64,000 bases of DNA, taken from assembly GCA_018969185.1 (NCBI GenBank), contig JAGWYT010000001.1:78112-142111 (forward strand), read 5' to 3'. The position numbers and the translations under genes are program-made. The notes beneath the pieces are model-generated. The model had not been told where the DNA came from and made no database searches. It saw only the letters and a program-made list of their open reading frames with translations. Positions within the stretch are counted from its first letter, which is position 1; every line of letters begins with the position of its first letter. Source of the stretch: Rickettsiales bacterium (lineage in GTDB: Bacteria; Pseudomonadota; Alphaproteobacteria; Rickettsiales; UBA1997). This document shows positions 17,640 through 62,829 of the stretch, in pieces.

Positions 17640-17726
17640 TTATCCGCTGGTTGAGCGAAGTCGAAACCAAGGATAAAATTATTCCAAAGCTTCTCTTGGT
17701 TTCGACTTCGCTCAACCAGCAAGAAG
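17640..17726. repeat. PE-C palindromic element, copy 1 (reverse orientation)
   Basis: GCTGGTTGAGCGAAGTCGAAACCAAGG...CTTGGTTTCGACTTCGCTCAACCAGC. It lies between the adaptor and pump genes of the RND operon. Confidence 0.85.
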
Positions 17727-38122: not shown

Positions 38123-38619
38123 AGTACCCATTTATCAGTTTTGTTTTAGCCATTTTTATTCTACTTTCTTTGTTTTTTTTATCTTTCTTAAAAAAACGTG
38201 AAGTTATTATGCCTGCAACTATAGAGATAGATGCAACAATGATTGAAGAGGTTTCTGAAAAAAGATCTGAAGCAAAATTTGATGATGGTTATATCAAAAA
38301 AAATGCAGAAAAAAAAGAGAAGATCCTGAAACAAGTTCAGGATGACAAGAATAATAATTCAGATTCGCAAAATAAAGTTTTAGTGAAATATGGACCTTTG
38401 CCAAAAATTCCTGATCACTTACGCGATGAGGCATTTAACAGTTTTGCCATTGCACGTTTTTATATTAATGAAGATGGTTCAGCAAGAGCTGAATTAATCA
38501 AGCCTTGTACCAATCCTGAATTAAATTATTTGCTATTGAAGAGTTTGCAAAAATGGAAATTTGCTGAATCTAATAAAGAATCAATTCAGGATATTAAGGT
38601 GAATTTTACTGTGGAATAG
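38119..38619 (+). CDS. tonB: TonB-like energy transducer (short), with a PE-A unit in the linker
   Basis: 166-aa ORF with ATGA overlap to exbD, an N-terminal TM segment, a charged linker and a C-terminal domain (ARFYINEDGSA...KWKF). Confidence 0.6.
   Translation: MKYPFISFVLAIFILLSLFFLSFLKKREVIMPATIEIDATMIEEVSEKRSEAKFDDGYIKKNAEKKEKILKQVQDDKNNNSDSQNKVLVKYGPLPKIPDHLRDEAFNSFAIARFYINEDGSARAELIKPCTNPELNYLLLKSLQKWKFAESNKESIQDIKVNFTVE
38319..38346. repeat. single PE-A unit inside tonB
   Basis: GAAGATCCTGAAACAAGTTCAGGATGAC has the same core as the units at 620-695. It is translated as KILKQVQDD. Confidence 0.7.
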
Positions 38620-39181
38620 CTCTCTTAAGGAAAAAGCCAATTACAAAAATCAGTCCTAAACAATAAATCACATTCCATCCCGCCATTGAAACGCCTAAAA
38701 ATATAAATGCAGGCTCATCACATTTAATGGCTTTAGTATTGTTGATGGCAATTTTTAATTCTTCAAGATCAGTAATTTCATTTAAATTTTGTGAGGCTGA
38801 ACAAGTTGTTGGGCCTTTGAATATCTTATTTTCAACGCCAACATGATAAGAGGCAATTCCAATATTGATGAGTAGTAATAGAGCACAAAGATAAATTGAG
38901 ATTTTTTTAAATTTTTCAGATTTAAAAAATATTAAAGTAAGTGAGGTGAGGGCAATAATTGCAAAAAATGGCTTACGCTGATAAAAGCACAAAACACAAG
39001 GCTGCATATCAAAAACATATTGTGAAATATATGCGAAGCACAGTGCTGCTATTGATGAGATGAGGAGAAATAAGTTTACTATCTTAAGAGATCCTTCGCT
39101 ACGCTCAGGATGACACCACGAACTGTCATCCTGAGCGTAGCGAAGGATCTCTTGTTGTTTTTGTTCAGACTTGCTTATCAT
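38606..39181 (-). CDS. dsbB: DsbB-family disulfide oxidoreductase with a repeat-derived N-terminal extension
   Basis: 191-aa ORF with PCVLCFYQR (DsbB CxxC) and four TM segments. Residues ~10-32 (EILRYAQDDSSWCHPERSEGSLK) are translated from PE-A at 39087-39153. The start overlaps the pgi stop. Confidence 0.7.
   Translation of the reverse strand: MISKSEQKQQEILRYAQDDSSWCHPERSEGSLKIVNLFLLISSIAALCFAYISQYVFDMQPCVLCFYQRKPFFAIIALTSLTLIFFKSEKFKKISIYLCALLLLINIGIASYHVGVENKIFKGPTTCSASQNLNEITDLEELKIAINNTKAIKCDEPAFIFLGVSMAGWNVIYCLGLIFVIGFFLKRAIPQ
39087..39153. repeat. PE-A element, two minimal inverted units
   Basis: AAGAGATCCTTCGCTACGCTCAGGATGAC ... GTCATCCTGAGCGTAGCGAAGGATCTCTT. Confidence 0.85.
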
Positions 39182-60659: not shown

Positions 60660-61511
60660 CTATTGAGAAAGCGTAATCTTATATTTCTGTCCTAAATAGC
60701 TTTCAACGGATCTTCTTTCTACATCATTAAGAGTTCGTGAAAATGCAATAATTTCAGCAATATCGCCCTCATATTTATTACTGCCATAAGCTCCAGCTGA
60801 ATAATTGACAAGTGATGGAGCTAATGTTGTTTGCGAGCTATCAGCAGTCACTGGATTTTTGCCACCATTTAGCCAATATTTTTTACCAGCAGTGCCGCTA
60901 AGCCAGTAAGTATGTATTAATGGAACATGATTTACAAAATATTGTGAACTATAGTCTAAGTCATTGACCAAATAAAATATTGCAGTACTGCCATTTCTAT
61001 ATCCAAGCCTTGGATTACCTGCAGCAGAACCTGCTAAAAATTCATCGTAAGTAGAATTATCTCCTCCTCTTTTTTCAACAATAAAAATTGTGAAATTACT
61101 ATTTTCTAAACCTCTCATGCTAAGCACTATGTAATTTGTGCCATCAAATCTTACTGAGGGCAATCCGTTAAAAACATCATTATAAAATTTAGGTCTTACA
61201 CCTGGGGTTGATTGAGTGGCATCATTTTTTATCATTACTTATGGATTATTGTCATACCAAGTGCTGATTGTGTTGCCATCTGTTGTTTCAGTGCTAATAA
61301 AACTGCTTTCCAAAGAAGTTTCATGCCATACCACTAAATTTTTTATTCCACTTACAGGAGAACTTTTGGTAAGGCTTTGCGCAGTTTGAATCTGTATTTT
61401 TTTAAGCAAATTAACACCACCCATAACTCCGGCAACTAATATACCAATCACCAAAATGACGATTGAAAGTTCAATTAATGAAAAGGCTTTTAAGGATTTT
61501 TTATTAATCAT
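60660..61511 (-). pseudogene. prepilin-signal / LamG-like protein, paralog 3, interrupted by one in-frame TAA
   Basis: Track ORFs 61239-61511 (MINKKSLKAFSLIELSIVILVIGILVAG...TWYDNNP) and 60660-61235 are in the same frame. They are separated by TAA (complement of 61239-61241) at the position where both paralogs have Gln (NPQ). The C-terminus YEGDIAEIIAFSRTLNDVERRSVESYLGQKYKI is the family motif. Confidence 0.7.
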
Positions 61512-61562: not shown

Positions 61563-61648
61563 CTTCTCGCTGGTTGAGCTTGTCGAAACCAAGAGAAGTT
61601 TTGTAAAAATCTTATTCTTGGTTTCGACAAGCTCAACCAGCGAACAAG
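61563..61648. repeat. PE-C palindromic element, copy 5
   Basis: CTTCTCGCTGGTTGAGCTTGTCGAAACCAAGAGAAG...CTTATTCTTGGTTTCGACAAGCTCAACCAGCGAACAAG. Confidence 0.85.
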
Positions 61649-61658
61649 ATTACAATCA

Positions 61659-62642
61659 CTAATTTTTTAATAAGAAATTTCTTTTTATATCATGAACCCT
61701 AATAAAATCTACATTCTTCTTTATAAGATATTTAGAAATAACAAGAGTTTTATTTGCTCTATCTGGAGGCTGTTCCCAAACTACGCAAGGTAATAACGAG
61801 CTTTTTGCCTCATCTCGTGGCTCTTTTGATGCATCTGACTTCGGAAAATTTTCTTCAGATAATTGCATATCTGAAGAAAATTGTTTCTTGTCATCTGCAC
61901 AAAATAGCCTACGATCTGAGGTAAAAAGTTTGGGAACAGGCTCCAACTCTCCCATTTCAGAAAAATCAATGGCATCAAGAAAACTTTTTTTAGAATGTCC
62001 AACATAAAGTGGCAATCCTAAAACTCTAAAGGCATCGATGTTTTTTAAAATACGAATTGATTGCAAAGAATCTTTGCCAAAACCAATTCCAACATCAAAA
62101 ATCAATTGTGATTTTTTAACGCCTTTTTGCATCAGATAAGAAATTTTTTCTTGTGCCCATTTAATAATTTCGTCAGTCAAATTTAAATGTCTATTAATTA
62201 ACGTTCCTTCAACTGCTGGCACAGATAGATTATGCATCAAAATGGTTGTGATATTATTTTTGGCAATAAATTCAATGGTGCGATCATCAATTAAACCATC
62301 AACATCATTAATAATATCAACACCATTTTCAAAAGCTTTTTTGGCAGTTTCAAAGTGACGAGTGTCAATGCTGGTGGTAACTTTCTTACCAGTTTTTTGA
62401 TTAAAATTTTTTACTTCTGAAGTTATTGCTGGCAGAATTTTTTCTAATCTTTTCCATTCTTCTTCTGTGCTTACGGGTGTAAATCCAGGGCGGGTTGATT
62501 CAGCACCAATATCAATCATATCAGCGCCGTCATTTAACATTTCTTTTAGATGAGTAATGGCATTATCAAGCGAAGTGAATTTCCCACCATCGGAAAATGA
62601 ATCAGGAGTAATGTTTAAAATACCAACAATTTTTGTGGGCAT
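61659..62642 (-). CDS. folP: dihydropteroate synthase with an in-frame ~60-aa palindromic insertion
   Basis: 327 aa against 282 aa in E. coli. It has GILNITPDSFSDGG, IDIGAESTRPG, DVGIGFGK, VGHSKKSF and IRVHDI. About 70 aa lie between SKKSFLD and DRANKTLV, where E. coli has about 8. Confidence 0.85.
   Translation of the reverse strand: MPTKIVGILNITPDSFSDGGKFTSLDNAITHLKEMLNDGADMIDIGAESTRPGFTPVSTEEEWKRLEKILPAITSEVKNFNQKTGKKVTTSIDTRHFETAKKAFENGVDIINDVDGLIDDRTIEFIAKNNITTILMHNLSVPAVEGTLINRHLNLTDEIIKWAQEKISYLMQKGVKKSQLIFDVGIGFGKDSLQSIRILKNIDAFRVLGLPLYVGHSKKSFLDAIDFSEMGELEPVPKLFTSDRRLFCADDKKQFSSDMQLSEENFPKSDASKEPRDEAKSSLLPCVVWEQPPDRANKTLVISKYLIKKNVDFIRVHDIKRNFLLKN
61771..61938. repeat. 168-bp palindromic element inside folP (family unassigned)
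   Basis: Terminal inverted repeat TGTTCCCAAACT (61771-61782) / AGTTTGGGAACA (61927-61938). Central palindrome GAAAATTTTCTTCAGAT-AATTGCAT-ATCTGAAGAAAATT. 168 nt equals 56 codons. Confidence 0.7.
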
Positions 62643-62667
62643 AAATTTCTACTAATTTACTTTTAAT

Positions 62668-62800
62668 AACCCTCCCCTTGAGGGAGGGTCGACGAACAAG
62701 CTTTGCTTGTGAGTCGGGGAGGGGTTATAGTTTTTCAAAAACCTAATTTTACCCCTCCTCGAAGCTGCTAAAGCAGCTTCGATCCTCCCTCAAGGGGAGG
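62668..62800. repeat. inverted pair of PE-D units separated by only ~24 bp (cargo-less version of the recJ cassette)
   Basis: 62668-62726: AACCCTCCCCTTGAGGGAGGGTCGACGAACAAGCTTTGCTTGTGAGTCGGGGAGGGGTT (reverse orientation). 62751-62800: ACCCCTCCTCGAAGCTGCTAAAGCAGCTTCGATCCTCCCTCAAGGGGAGG (forward). The forward unit has the same inner hairpin stem (GAAGCTGC/GCAGCTTC) as the right unit in recJ. Confidence 0.8.
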
Positions 62801-62829
62801 ATAATTGGACCGAAATAAATAAAGAAATT

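Follow-up and report, generated by a model that had tools for sequence, protein, structure and literature searches.

A palindromic element of a TA-flanked family lies in frame in folP of an uncultured alphaproteobacterium and is probably a MITE comparable to RPEs

Among described repeats, the closest systems are MITEs that end in TA, form long stem-loops and occur fused in frame to genes, above all the RPEs of Rickettsia (PMC2229807, PMC10969869), of which RPE-1 to RPE-10 were described by Ogata et al. 2000 and are reviewed in the same two articles. RUP and Correia/NEMIS elements are likewise TA-flanked MITEs and are thought to be moved by IS630-family transposases (PMC2229807). Here, a palindromic element was analysed that interrupts folP, the gene for dihydropteroate synthase (DHPS), in a window of 64 kb (the whole stretch of DNA analysed, 64,000 nucleotides) from an alphaproteobacterium. 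The coordinates of the gene, of the extra segment and of the parts of the element are given in Table 1.

Table 1 Position of folP and of the inserted element and its parts in the window
Feature	Position	Strand	Basis or remark
folP, dihydropteroate synthase, 327 aa, insertion host	61659-62642	-	ORF, Pfam, PDB, AF2/Foldseek
Extra segment LEPVPKLF...VVWEQPP, 183 nt / 61 codons	61764-61946	-	FolP protein alignments; filled vs empty site
TG where other copies have TA	61764-61765		coding strand CTA->CCA (Leu->Pro)
Left terminal inverted repeat TGGAGGCTGTTCCCAAACT	61764-61782		19 nt, 95% complementary (repeat search)
Element proper GAG...CTC, 178 bp	61766-61943		bounds set by comparing other copies
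20-nt one-arm block, unpaired bulge	61781-61800		self-alignment and folds of both copies
Central hairpin, 15-bp stem and 6-nt loop, differs among copies	61847-61882		folds
Right terminal inverted repeat AGTTTGGGAACAGGCTCCA	61927-61945		pairs with left repeat, 19 nt, 95%
CA where other copies have TA	61944-61945		coding strand TTA->TTG, synonymous Leu

The folP reading frame runs uninterrupted through the insert, all 327 codons being open in a genome of 33% GC. The PF00809 match of FolP (E 1.8e-58) covers aa 7-226 only, stopping at aa 226 because the insert splits the domain match, and the match to DHPS in the PDB falls into two pieces (2-226 and 294-321). FolP was aligned in sets of 14 and of 119 sequences, with 118 orthologues aligned among the 119 best-scoring homologues. 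The 61-aa segment is absent from all 118, and no unrelated lineage among them shares it without palindromic DNA. It stands where the closest orthologue (P0002, 83% identical, 277 aa) has two codons, AAT TTA (Asn-Leu), so that GE-NL-DRA in the orthologue corresponds to GE-(61 aa)-DRA in the window. The sequence-only reading, which had called for such an alignment, had proposed that about 70 aa replace about 8; the replacement is borne out, and its sizes are corrected to 61 aa in place of 2 aa. The length of this loop differs from one orthologue to another, and one orthologue carries an unrelated 27-aa insert there. The closest FolP sequences come from freshwater metagenome bins, the best GTDB representative FolP in the related-locus scan (63%) belongs to a MAG labelled 'Alphaproteobacteria bacterium', and a search of sequence records for an exact match to the window FolP protein returned none. 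The sequence occurs in metagenome runs from freshwater, soil, sediment and estuary. All near-identical strain contigs that were seen to span the site, across several studies, contain the insert, and no joint skipping the element (an empty allele) was seen over the folP region in 10 runs.

The palindrome occupies window positions 61764-61945 (182 nt) with 19-nt terminal inverted repeats, and has a GC content of 40.7% versus 31.0% across the remaining folP. As DNA it folds at -54 kcal/mol (z = -11.7), a value that none of 200 shuffles reached, and the coding-strand RNA folds at -83.5 kcal/mol (z -9.4). A long palindrome had been claimed at this place in folP and folds far better than shuffles, its arms do align, and both the 12-nt termini, TGTTCCCAAACT and AGTTTGGGAACA, and the GAAAATTTTCTTCAGAT..ATCTGAAGAAAATT hairpin at the centre were found as described. 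Its extent had been given as 168 bp (61771-61938); the element is present there, but the repeat runs 7 nt further on each side, giving 182 nt. The term near-perfect does not hold, as the inner arms, ungapped, are only 70% complementary and one arm contains a 20-nt unpaired block, making this an imperfect palindrome. Open frames in the element (172-178 bp) consist of read-through frames of 57-60 codons only, with no transposase gene.

Within the 64-kb window, blastn with the element and a terminal-repeat search found only the element itself, in agreement with the earlier observation that the window holds no second copy and that the element is of a different family from the window's other palindromes; it is nonetheless multi-copy elsewhere. 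Contig depth over 61778-61908 is 3-6 fold that of the flanks in several metagenomes, and at least five further copies, each with unrelated flanks, occur in public metagenome contigs (30-nt loose ends and mismatch tables). These copies are known by their loose ends, complete copies having been read from the window and from a JGI contig (L151). When the 61-aa peptide was searched by phmmer in 1.84 billion representative proteins, a single match came up, P0121 (aa 43-99, 68% identity, E 4e-12), a YdhS-like FAD/NAD-binding protein unrelated to FolP in which L151 carries one more copy (907-1082), in frame and in the same reading frame; in-frame palindromic insertion in conserved protein genes is seen in both folP and the YdhS-like gene. 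The L151 copy is 82% identical to the window copy in DNA over 185 aligned nt, is palindromic (fold z -8.4) with a fully paired terminal stem, has a one-arm bulge at the same position, and is open in three of six frames. When it is removed from P0121, the Pfam NAD_binding_9 match becomes contiguous and rises from 48.7 to 57.7 bits. Four of the outer 48 stem pairs differ between the window and L151 copies, and all four are double compensatory changes (none one-sided), while the central hairpin is variable in the L151 and metagenome copies.

A search in the rest of the genome had been suggested earlier; the further copies were recovered through metagenome contigs and phmmer. No additional family members emerged when GTDB representative genomes and the metagenome contig collection were scanned for patterns, and a conserved-arm 22-mer scan gave 0 matches. 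A scan of genome contigs for TGTTCCCAAACT-N125-155-AGTTTGGGAACA gave 11 loci (anammox Planctomycetes, Marithrix and Desulfococcaceae), which proved to be clustered short REP-like hairpins (TTGTTCCCAAACTCTGTTTGGGAACAA) and unrelated MITEs with only the 12-mer in common, and are not relatives. The central hairpin is a poor probe because it is the most variable part of the family; scans with it of genome and metagenome contigs recovered only the ~38-nt hairpin, mostly in Imperialibacter/Bacteroides, with no extension by blastn. A degenerate two-arm pattern gave 21 chance matches, none extending, and Rfam gave only sub-threshold generic hairpin (miRNA-precursor) matches, judged to be chance. No match was found by a word-based protein search with the insert peptide or by searching plasmid and phage collections for the element, and a search for P0121 homologues that might show a second empty site returned only P0121. 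Neither the terminal-repeat search of the window nor the scans of genome and metagenome collections revealed an autonomous element or a transposase whose ends match.

In the other copies, all ends that were observed have the form TA|GAG(G/C/T).. or ..CTC|TA, with similarity lost outside, and the L151 copy is bounded by T-TA-GAG...CTC-TA-G. The folP copy has TG and CA at these places (Table 1), and the two dinucleotides would be mutated copies of a duplicated target TA. The empty site of the nearest orthologue (L001) reads GGAGAAAAT T TA GATAGG, so that an empty T-TA-GAT can be set against a filled T-TG-(element)-CA-GAT, in one comparison with an orthologue that is 83% identical (dS 0.66). One codon (AAT) is missing at the left junction relative to this orthologue. 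The putative target is TTAG both at the empty site of folP and in L151, and CTAA in one of the metagenome copies. These ends fit an element of 172-178 bp with a 2-bp TA duplication, which would give 178+2 = 180 in folP and 172+2 = 174 in L151, both multiples of three. An exact multiple of three had been noted before, at 168 bp; that figure followed from the bounds chosen, and the property itself would hold for a unit of 178 + 2 = 180.

The reading we favour, with a probability of about 0.8, is that of a TA-inserting MITE family of which one copy landed in frame in folP, in the manner of an RPE; a new MITE family is the best reading of the element itself. Its central part, an inserted palindromic element, was already contained in the sequence-only reading and is upheld by absence from the 118 orthologues, foreign GC content, recurrence elsewhere and preservation of the frame. 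Family members would be ~172-178 bp long and almost wholly self-complementary, with ~19-nt terminal inverted repeats. Insertion would have occurred into the TA that makes up the second and third positions of a TTA (Leu) codon of folP, in the loop that joins the short loop-7 helix to the seventh barrel helix. Since the element is 3n+1 long and brings a 2-bp TA duplication, folP would stay in frame, and since there is no stop in this orientation and phase, the whole element would be read through and translated; the duplicated TA copies would afterwards have mutated to TG and CA. As to the mobilising enzyme, our guess is an IS630/Tc1-mariner-type transposase acting in trans, to which solely the putative TA duplication and the YTAR-like targets point.

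A different route of movement would be that of a hairpin-dependent repeat transferred as single-stranded DNA by an HUH/Y1 transposase, as in REP/BIME-RAYT or IS200/IS605, the TA then being part of the element. The element is almost entirely one long hairpin, the compensatory stem changes between copies are what a structure-recognising enzyme would select, and TA, being self-complementary, may simply form the outer end of the paired inverted repeat and cannot by itself tell a target duplication from a repeat end. Against this, the empty site in P0002 has a single TA exactly at the place of the two end dinucleotides. In IS200/IS605 relatives the ends are asymmetric, and terminal inverted repeats are lacking. 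REPs, as characterised in PMC3733652, are palindromes of 20-40 bp with a GTAG or CGTC head, whereas the element measures 178 bp, starts with GAG and has the ends GAG(G/C)CTGTTCC, which places it outside the REP/RAYT definition. We consider this route improbable.

The TA-inserting MITE reading leaves the fate of the enzyme to be considered, and here the alternative is that folP is a pseudogene, the insertion having inactivated the enzyme and the open frame reflecting too little time to decay. In the AF2 model of FolP the barrel has pLDDT >90 and the insert pLDDT <50, and Foldseek aligns the model with Anaplasma DHPS 6UCZ at TM 0.86-0.87; in the model, the TIM barrel is left intact by the insert, and the translated insert is probably a hydrophilic, disordered loop of ~60 residues. 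A structure model had been proposed as a check, and it gives a confident barrel with the insert as a disordered loop near loop 7. The insert site, with residues 232 and 294 as loop anchors, lies between the short loop-7 helix and helix 295-308, the seventh barrel helix, which is followed by strand 313-316 carrying RVHD; the insert had been placed just before the last helix, bearing RVHD, and while this proximity stands, the helix is the seventh and RVHD is on the next strand. Inactivation would be in keeping with where the insert sits: in loop 7, on the barrel's catalytic face, it immediately follows the conserved GHSKKSF motif and immediately precedes a helix that forms part of the dimer interface of other DHPS (PMC3098144). 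It would also be in keeping with an 80-bp mRNA hairpin of -83 kcal/mol that could be cut by RNase III, cleavage by which has been demonstrated for Correia elements (PMC10969869). Yet a frame of this length has stayed open at low GC content, and none of the 42 residues invariant in FolP has been lost on either side of the insert, K298, T299, R315 and H317 downstream of it included. The dN/dS of folP against P0002, the nearest orthologue, is 0.15, and although there has been time for both TA ends of the insertion to be lost, no frameshift or stop has arisen. Orthologues show indels in the same loop, and a Rickettsia guanylate kinase bearing an RPE is active (PMC2229807). Strain variants of folP show five synonymous and three conservative differences, which is weak evidence because they are clustered like recombination tracts. 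Whether the loop tolerates the insert or the enzyme is compromised had been left undecided; the evidence leans towards tolerance, which is favoured because of the kept invariant residues, the low dN/dS, the presence of the insert in all spanning strain contigs and the variable loop length. Translation of the insert and retained activity of FolP are what we infer, and a pseudogene, like single-stranded movement, appears improbable.

It is hardly credible that a functional loop or domain specific to the lineage happens to have self-complementary coding DNA here, or that the segment is an assembly artefact: a 68%-identical peptide does occur in the same frame in two proteins, but the peptide is less conserved than the DNA (82% over 185 nt), the stem is the conserved part, the element lies in two proteins unrelated to each other and has at least five other sets of flanks, the insert models as disordered, and independent contigs that span both junctions (X2 and X7 among them), coming from at least four studies, exclude an artefact. 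Inteins, which are at least ~130 aa long with an N-terminal Cys/Ser and a C-terminal His-Asn followed by Cys/Ser/Thr, were also rejected; the insert has 61 aa, begins with LEP and ends with QPP, followed by D.

The TA-inserting MITE in folP would extend selfish DNA in protein-coding genes from the RPEs of Rickettsia to a lineage of uncultured environmental alphaproteobacteria and to a drug-target enzyme. Inserts of this kind split Pfam and PDB matches, as in the DHPS match that ends at residue 226, and de Bruijn assemblies break at the palindrome centre, contigs ending at 61874/61877; both can mislead automated MAG annotation. A more speculative extension, which we regard as unlikely, is that the MITE is adapted to translation: selection for survivable genic insertion would have shaped the 3n+1 length that goes with the TA duplication, a preference for xTA codons and frames free of stops in either orientation, with the hairpin kept by compensatory evolution. 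If true, the RPE phenomenon would be a general strategy of mobile palindromes in free-living or protist-associated alphaproteobacteria and no oddity of Rickettsia. Going further along this unlikely line, the 60-residue loop beside the pABA/sulfonamide-binding loop 7 might alter substrate or sulfonamide discrimination by DHPS, or the mRNA hairpin might throttle folP expression.

Compared with known systems, ERIC and YPAL (RU-1, RU-2) of enterobacteria resemble the folP element in being imperfect palindromes of 127-168 bp whose open frames are contiguous and which are in some cases joined in frame to host ORFs, but are mostly intergenic and differ from it in hosts and sequences; YPAL, moreover, lacks TA ends and has variable duplications of 3-26 bp. 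RUP (Streptococcus pneumoniae) and Correia/NEMIS (Neisseria) share with it a length of <200 bp, terminal inverted repeats, TA ends (in the other copies of the family), insertion at TA and long stem-loop transcripts (the last two predicted for the folP element), and the 107-bp Correia element also has open frames and occurs fused to genes. They show no sequence similarity to the folP element, for which no cognate IS is known, and have terminal repeats only, in contrast to its near-complete palindrome; RUP, unlike the folP element, has no open frame. The RPEs come closest: they too have an alphaproteobacterial host, are roughly 100-180 bp long and highly self-complementary with 12-19 nt terminal inverted repeats and an open frame throughout, lie in frame in surface loops of conserved housekeeping enzymes, add a hydrophilic peptide, and show the same peptide recurring in unrelated proteins. 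They differ in length (105-146 bp, as against 178 bp here) and in host, which is here an uncultured freshwater or soil alphaproteobacterium and not the genus Rickettsia, and the search of 1.84 billion proteins, at the peptide level only, gave no Rickettsia match. Target duplication is listed as unknown for RPEs (PMC2229807), and the filled/empty pair in folP, with a plausible TA duplication from one comparison, would supply this mechanistic detail. The in-frame insertion of a MITE in folP is the same kind of event as the RPEs and not a new phenomenon.

The window folP gene carries a genuine long palindromic element within its coding sequence, as the sequence-only reading had claimed. The arms align when computed (table), the single-stranded DNA fold of a 201-nt stretch has an energy of -54 kcal/mol relative to -17.9 +/- 3.1 in dinucleotide shuffles (z -11.7), and the coding-strand RNA fold is -83.5 kcal/mol (z -9.4); these energies lie well outside the shuffles, so the palindrome is real and greatly exceeds what chance would give. 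It measures 182 nt rather than the 168 first given, and was wrongly described as near-perfect, as the inner arms are 70% complementary and self-alignment shows a 20-nt block on one arm only, together with several small indels. Its GC content is 40.7%, compared with 31.0% in the remainder of folP, and the Pfam PF00809 match ends at FolP residue 226 (position 214 of the 244-position profile). Blastn and tblastn with the element matched only the element itself in the window, in agreement with the earlier statement that no second copy is present there, and the 12-mer terminus does not occur elsewhere in the window above chance level.

Positions and details of folP, the palindromic element, its copies and other features
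Feature	Position	Strand	Details
folP ORF	61659-62642	minus	327 aa; Pfam PF00809 pterin-binding enzyme, E 1.8e-58
Inserted segment LEPVPKLFTSDRRLFCADDKKQFSSDMQLSEENFPKSDASKEPRDEAKSSLLPCVVWEQPP	61764-61946		61 aa
Element, GAG...CTC	61766-61943		178 bp
Terminal arms of inverted repeat	61764-61782 and 61927-61945		19 nt, 95% complementary
Inner arms of inverted repeat	61801-61861 and 61868-61928		61 nt, 70% complementary ungapped
One-arm block	61781-61800		20 nt
Element copy in P0121 gene	L151 907-1082		82% identical to window copy over 185 aligned nt
Metagenome copy, both ends			...CAACAC TA GAGCATGTCTTA / TAAGACATGCTC TA ATAACC...
Metagenome copy end			...TTC TA GGGCCTGTCAT
Metagenome copy end			...TGT TA GAGTCTGTCTT
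Metagenome copy end			...GCC TA GAGTCTGTCTTA
Metagenome copy end			...CACC TA GAGGCTGT
Palindrome family GCTGGTTGAGC..GTCGAAACCAAG	61567-61643 and 17646-17720		perfect 26-28-nt arms
Composite GC-rich palindromes (CCCTCCCCTTGAGGGAGGG ... CCTCCCTCAAGGGGAGG)	62650-62821		fill spacer between folP start codon and pstA-like gene
Palindrome in DsbB-like ORF	39086-39153 (related copy 621-694)		perfect 30-nt arms
DsbB-like ORF	38606-39181	minus	
Two ORFs, folP-dnaK gap	60660-61511		90 aa and 191 aa
Inserts in P0032 folP	L002 480-632 and about 880-960

FolP was compared with its 119 best homologues besides the window's own protein, drawn from 5.8 billion proteins, all of them 256-300 aa in length apart from one of 358 aa. 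The extra segment was present in the window FolP alone in alignments of both 14 and 119 sequences. The closest orthologue, P0002 (277 aa, 83% identical, encoded on a contig syntenic for pstC-pstA-folP-dnaK), has Asn-Leu alone where the window FolP has 61 aa. The empty site in P0002 DNA reads GAAATAGGAGAAAAT T TA GATAGGGCA, and the filled site in the window reads GAAATGGGAGAG T TG [GAGCC...GGCTC] CA GATAGAGCA. As judged from these alignments, the 61-aa segment is an insertion.

Logan contigs of metagenomes from freshwater, soil and sediment that contain the organism were compared with the folP region, and contig depth across 61778-61908 was 3-6 fold higher than across flanking folP, with at least five unrelated flanks leading into the element at 74-93% identity to the window copy. 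All observed ends of these copies share the TA-flanked form. When 1.84 billion representative proteins were searched exhaustively with phmmer, the 61-aa peptide had a single match, to residues 43-99 of P0121 (68% identity, E 4e-12), a 686-aa protein that its source calls 'NAD(P)/FAD-binding protein YdhS'. The copy in its DNA, L151, is also a strong palindrome (z -8.4), has the one-sided unpaired block at the same position and on the same arm, and is bounded as AATT TA GAGCCTGTTCCAAAAC ... GTTTTGGAACAGGCTC TA GAGG. It directly follows the Rossmann-fold GxGxxG helix, and once it is removed in silico the Pfam NAD_binding_9 match becomes contiguous (profile 1-93) and scores 57.7 bits instead of 48.7. 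The peptide match and the L151 DNA therefore place the element, with predicted translation, in the same reading frame inside two unrelated enzymes. The sequence-only reading is correct in essence, and the element is now better delimited and belongs to a multi-copy mobile family. Searches of GTDB representative genomes, plasmids, phages and Rfam, and the probes applied to the metagenome contig collection, yielded no relatives. De Bruijn assemblies break at the element, and this may account for the scarcity of complete copies in public contig collections; Logan contigs of several runs stop at the palindrome centre (61874-61877), and a 62-nt unitig (61845-61906) is common to different copies.

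When the copies are compared, the element runs from GAG to CTC and has a length of 178 bp in the window copy and 172 bp in the L151 copy. TA lies on both sides of every copy but the window's, which is flanked by TG and CA, and the empty site has one TA precisely at the insertion point. The simplest model would be that the element entered a TA and duplicated its 2 bp, adding 180 (178+2) and 174 (172+2) bp, so that both insertions keep frame. In both genic copies TA forms positions 2-3 of a TTA codon, and the element is thus read GAG CCT GTT CC. AAA CTT (E P V P K L); in the same orientation, the junction gives a stop in the remaining two phases (TAG immediately, the other after 12 codons). Two of six frames are stop-free in the window copy and three of six in the L151 copy, whereas at least two were open in 27/5000 composition-matched shuffles and at least three in 1/5000; part of this excess is a by-product of palindromy, because the two strands carry almost identical sequence. 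The targets would be TTAG (folP and L151) and CTAA (one metagenome copy), and IS630/Tc1-mariner transposases duplicate TA in a YTAR-like target. From this likeness, and from the pneumococcal RUP MITE, for which like evidence led to an attribution to IS630-Spn1 (PMC2229807), we infer purely by analogy that an IS630/Tc1-mariner-type transposase would mobilise the element in trans. Neither a transposase nor a full-length IS was seen.

The outer and middle helices of the two complete copies comprise 48 pairs, 44 of them invariant; all four varying pairs are double compensatory (G-C to A-T, C-G to A-T, TG/CA to CA/TG), with no one-sided changes, the shuffle control being weak with two sequences (36/500). 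Termini are likewise coordinated in partial metagenome copies, where GAGCATGTCTTA pairs with TAAGACATGCTC, and peptide identity between the copies (68%) is below DNA identity (82%). This pattern indicates that symmetry of the hairpin or of the terminal repeats is kept, rather than the protein sequence.

With the 119-sequence alignment as input, AlphaFold2 gave a confident FolP barrel (mean pLDDT 85; 224 residues >=90) in which residues 239-286 have pLDDT <50 and no predicted secondary structure. The insert follows strand 212-215 (YVGH) and short helix 220-224, and precedes helix 295-308 and then strand 313-316 (IRVH). The model resembles solved DHPS structures, best that of Anaplasma phagocytophilum (6UCZ, TM 0.86-0.87), in which the linker between the two matching pieces is 4 residues vs 67 in the window FolP. 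Beta-to-alpha connections of a TIM barrel lie on the catalytic face, and the inserted loop is therefore predicted to emerge from the rim of the barrel, on the side of the active site. The short helix belongs to loop 7 in the Burkholderia enzyme, whose dimer interface is poorly conserved and includes contributions from the helices that come next (PMC3098144). Counted toward tolerance of the insert are the retention of 42/42 invariant positions on both sides of it, a dN/dS of 0.10/0.66 = 0.15 against P0002, the unchanged insert in contigs from other studies (runs X2, X7, X4 and X19), the lack of any joint skipping the element in the 10 runs compared with the folP region, length differences of -5 to +3 aa in this loop across orthologues, and the presence in the orthologue P0032 of a 27-aa insert, unrelated and non-palindromic, at this very point. 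Strain differences in folP (5 synonymous, 3 conservative) fall into clusters (61989-62064 and 62129-62136) that resemble recombination tracts, and so say little on post-insertion selection. Variants in X2, X7 and X10 have 7 changes in ~80 nt relative to the window, in tight clusters, and match it exactly over the element and folP 3' end, a mosaic that suggests homologous recombination between strains.

Other repeats and insertions were seen around folP and in its relatives. One copy of the GCTGGTTGAGC..GTCGAAACCAAG palindrome family adjoins the folP stop on the 3' side, and its depth in run X1 (~110x vs 2.4x for flanks) marks it as a repeat of very high copy number in that community; with the composite palindromes upstream, folP is bracketed by repeats and has a third inside. 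The palindrome inside the 5' end of the DsbB-like ORF supplies its N-terminal peptide ..ILRYAQDDSSWCHPERSEGS.., and may be a second translated palindromic element or reflect a mis-extended start. P0032 (358 aa, ~66% identical, from another metagenome) has an independent in-frame palindromic insert in a different FolP loop (terminal repeat TTGGAACCTACTCAGAATC, DNA fold z -4.4), and its 27-aa insert is GC-rich; taken with the window insert, in-frame folP inserts are therefore recurrent in the clade. In the folP-dnaK gap, the 90-aa ORF has a prepilin-type N-terminal methylation motif and the 191-aa ORF no Pfam match; dnaK directly follows folP in the P0002 contig, so the two ORFs are probably a lineage-specific insertion. 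A terminal-repeat scan of genomes gave loci from anammox Planctomycetes, Candidatus Marithrix and Desulfococcaceae (L003-L013), where an abundant REP-like hairpin (TTGTTCCCAAACTCTGTTTGGGAACAA) has the 12-mer TGTTCCCAAACT as its half-site; the hairpins often occur in clusters, some with other MITEs inserted in their loops. These loci were rejected as relatives because their interiors are unrelated.

The window FolP is at most 63% identical to GTDB representatives found by the related-locus scan (top, a MAG labelled Alphaproteobacteria), further named matches are Pelagibacterales and Rickettsiales MAGs (63-66%), and the sequence is present in freshwater, soil, sediment and estuary metagenomes. 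Rickettsia palindromic elements (RPEs) are palindromes that measure 105-146 bp, have open frames and carry terminal repeats of ~12 nt. They were reported in frame from 19 protein genes, and a guanylate kinase with such an insert was shown to be active (PMC2229807; PMC10969869). The element behaves as RPEs do, but membership of their families is not supported, as its peptide has no similarity to any Rickettsia protein among the 1.84 billion representatives and the host is not Rickettsia. It has the defining structure of a bacterial MITE and is closest to the TA-flanked class (RUP, Correia); transcripts containing Correia elements are cleaved by RNase III (PMC10969869), and the strong hairpin in the folP mRNA may be cut likewise. 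The element is another case of a known phenomenon rather than a new kind, valuable mainly as a clean example, outside Rickettsia, of a MITE with predicted translation, adding evidence for TA target duplication and compensatory hairpin maintenance.
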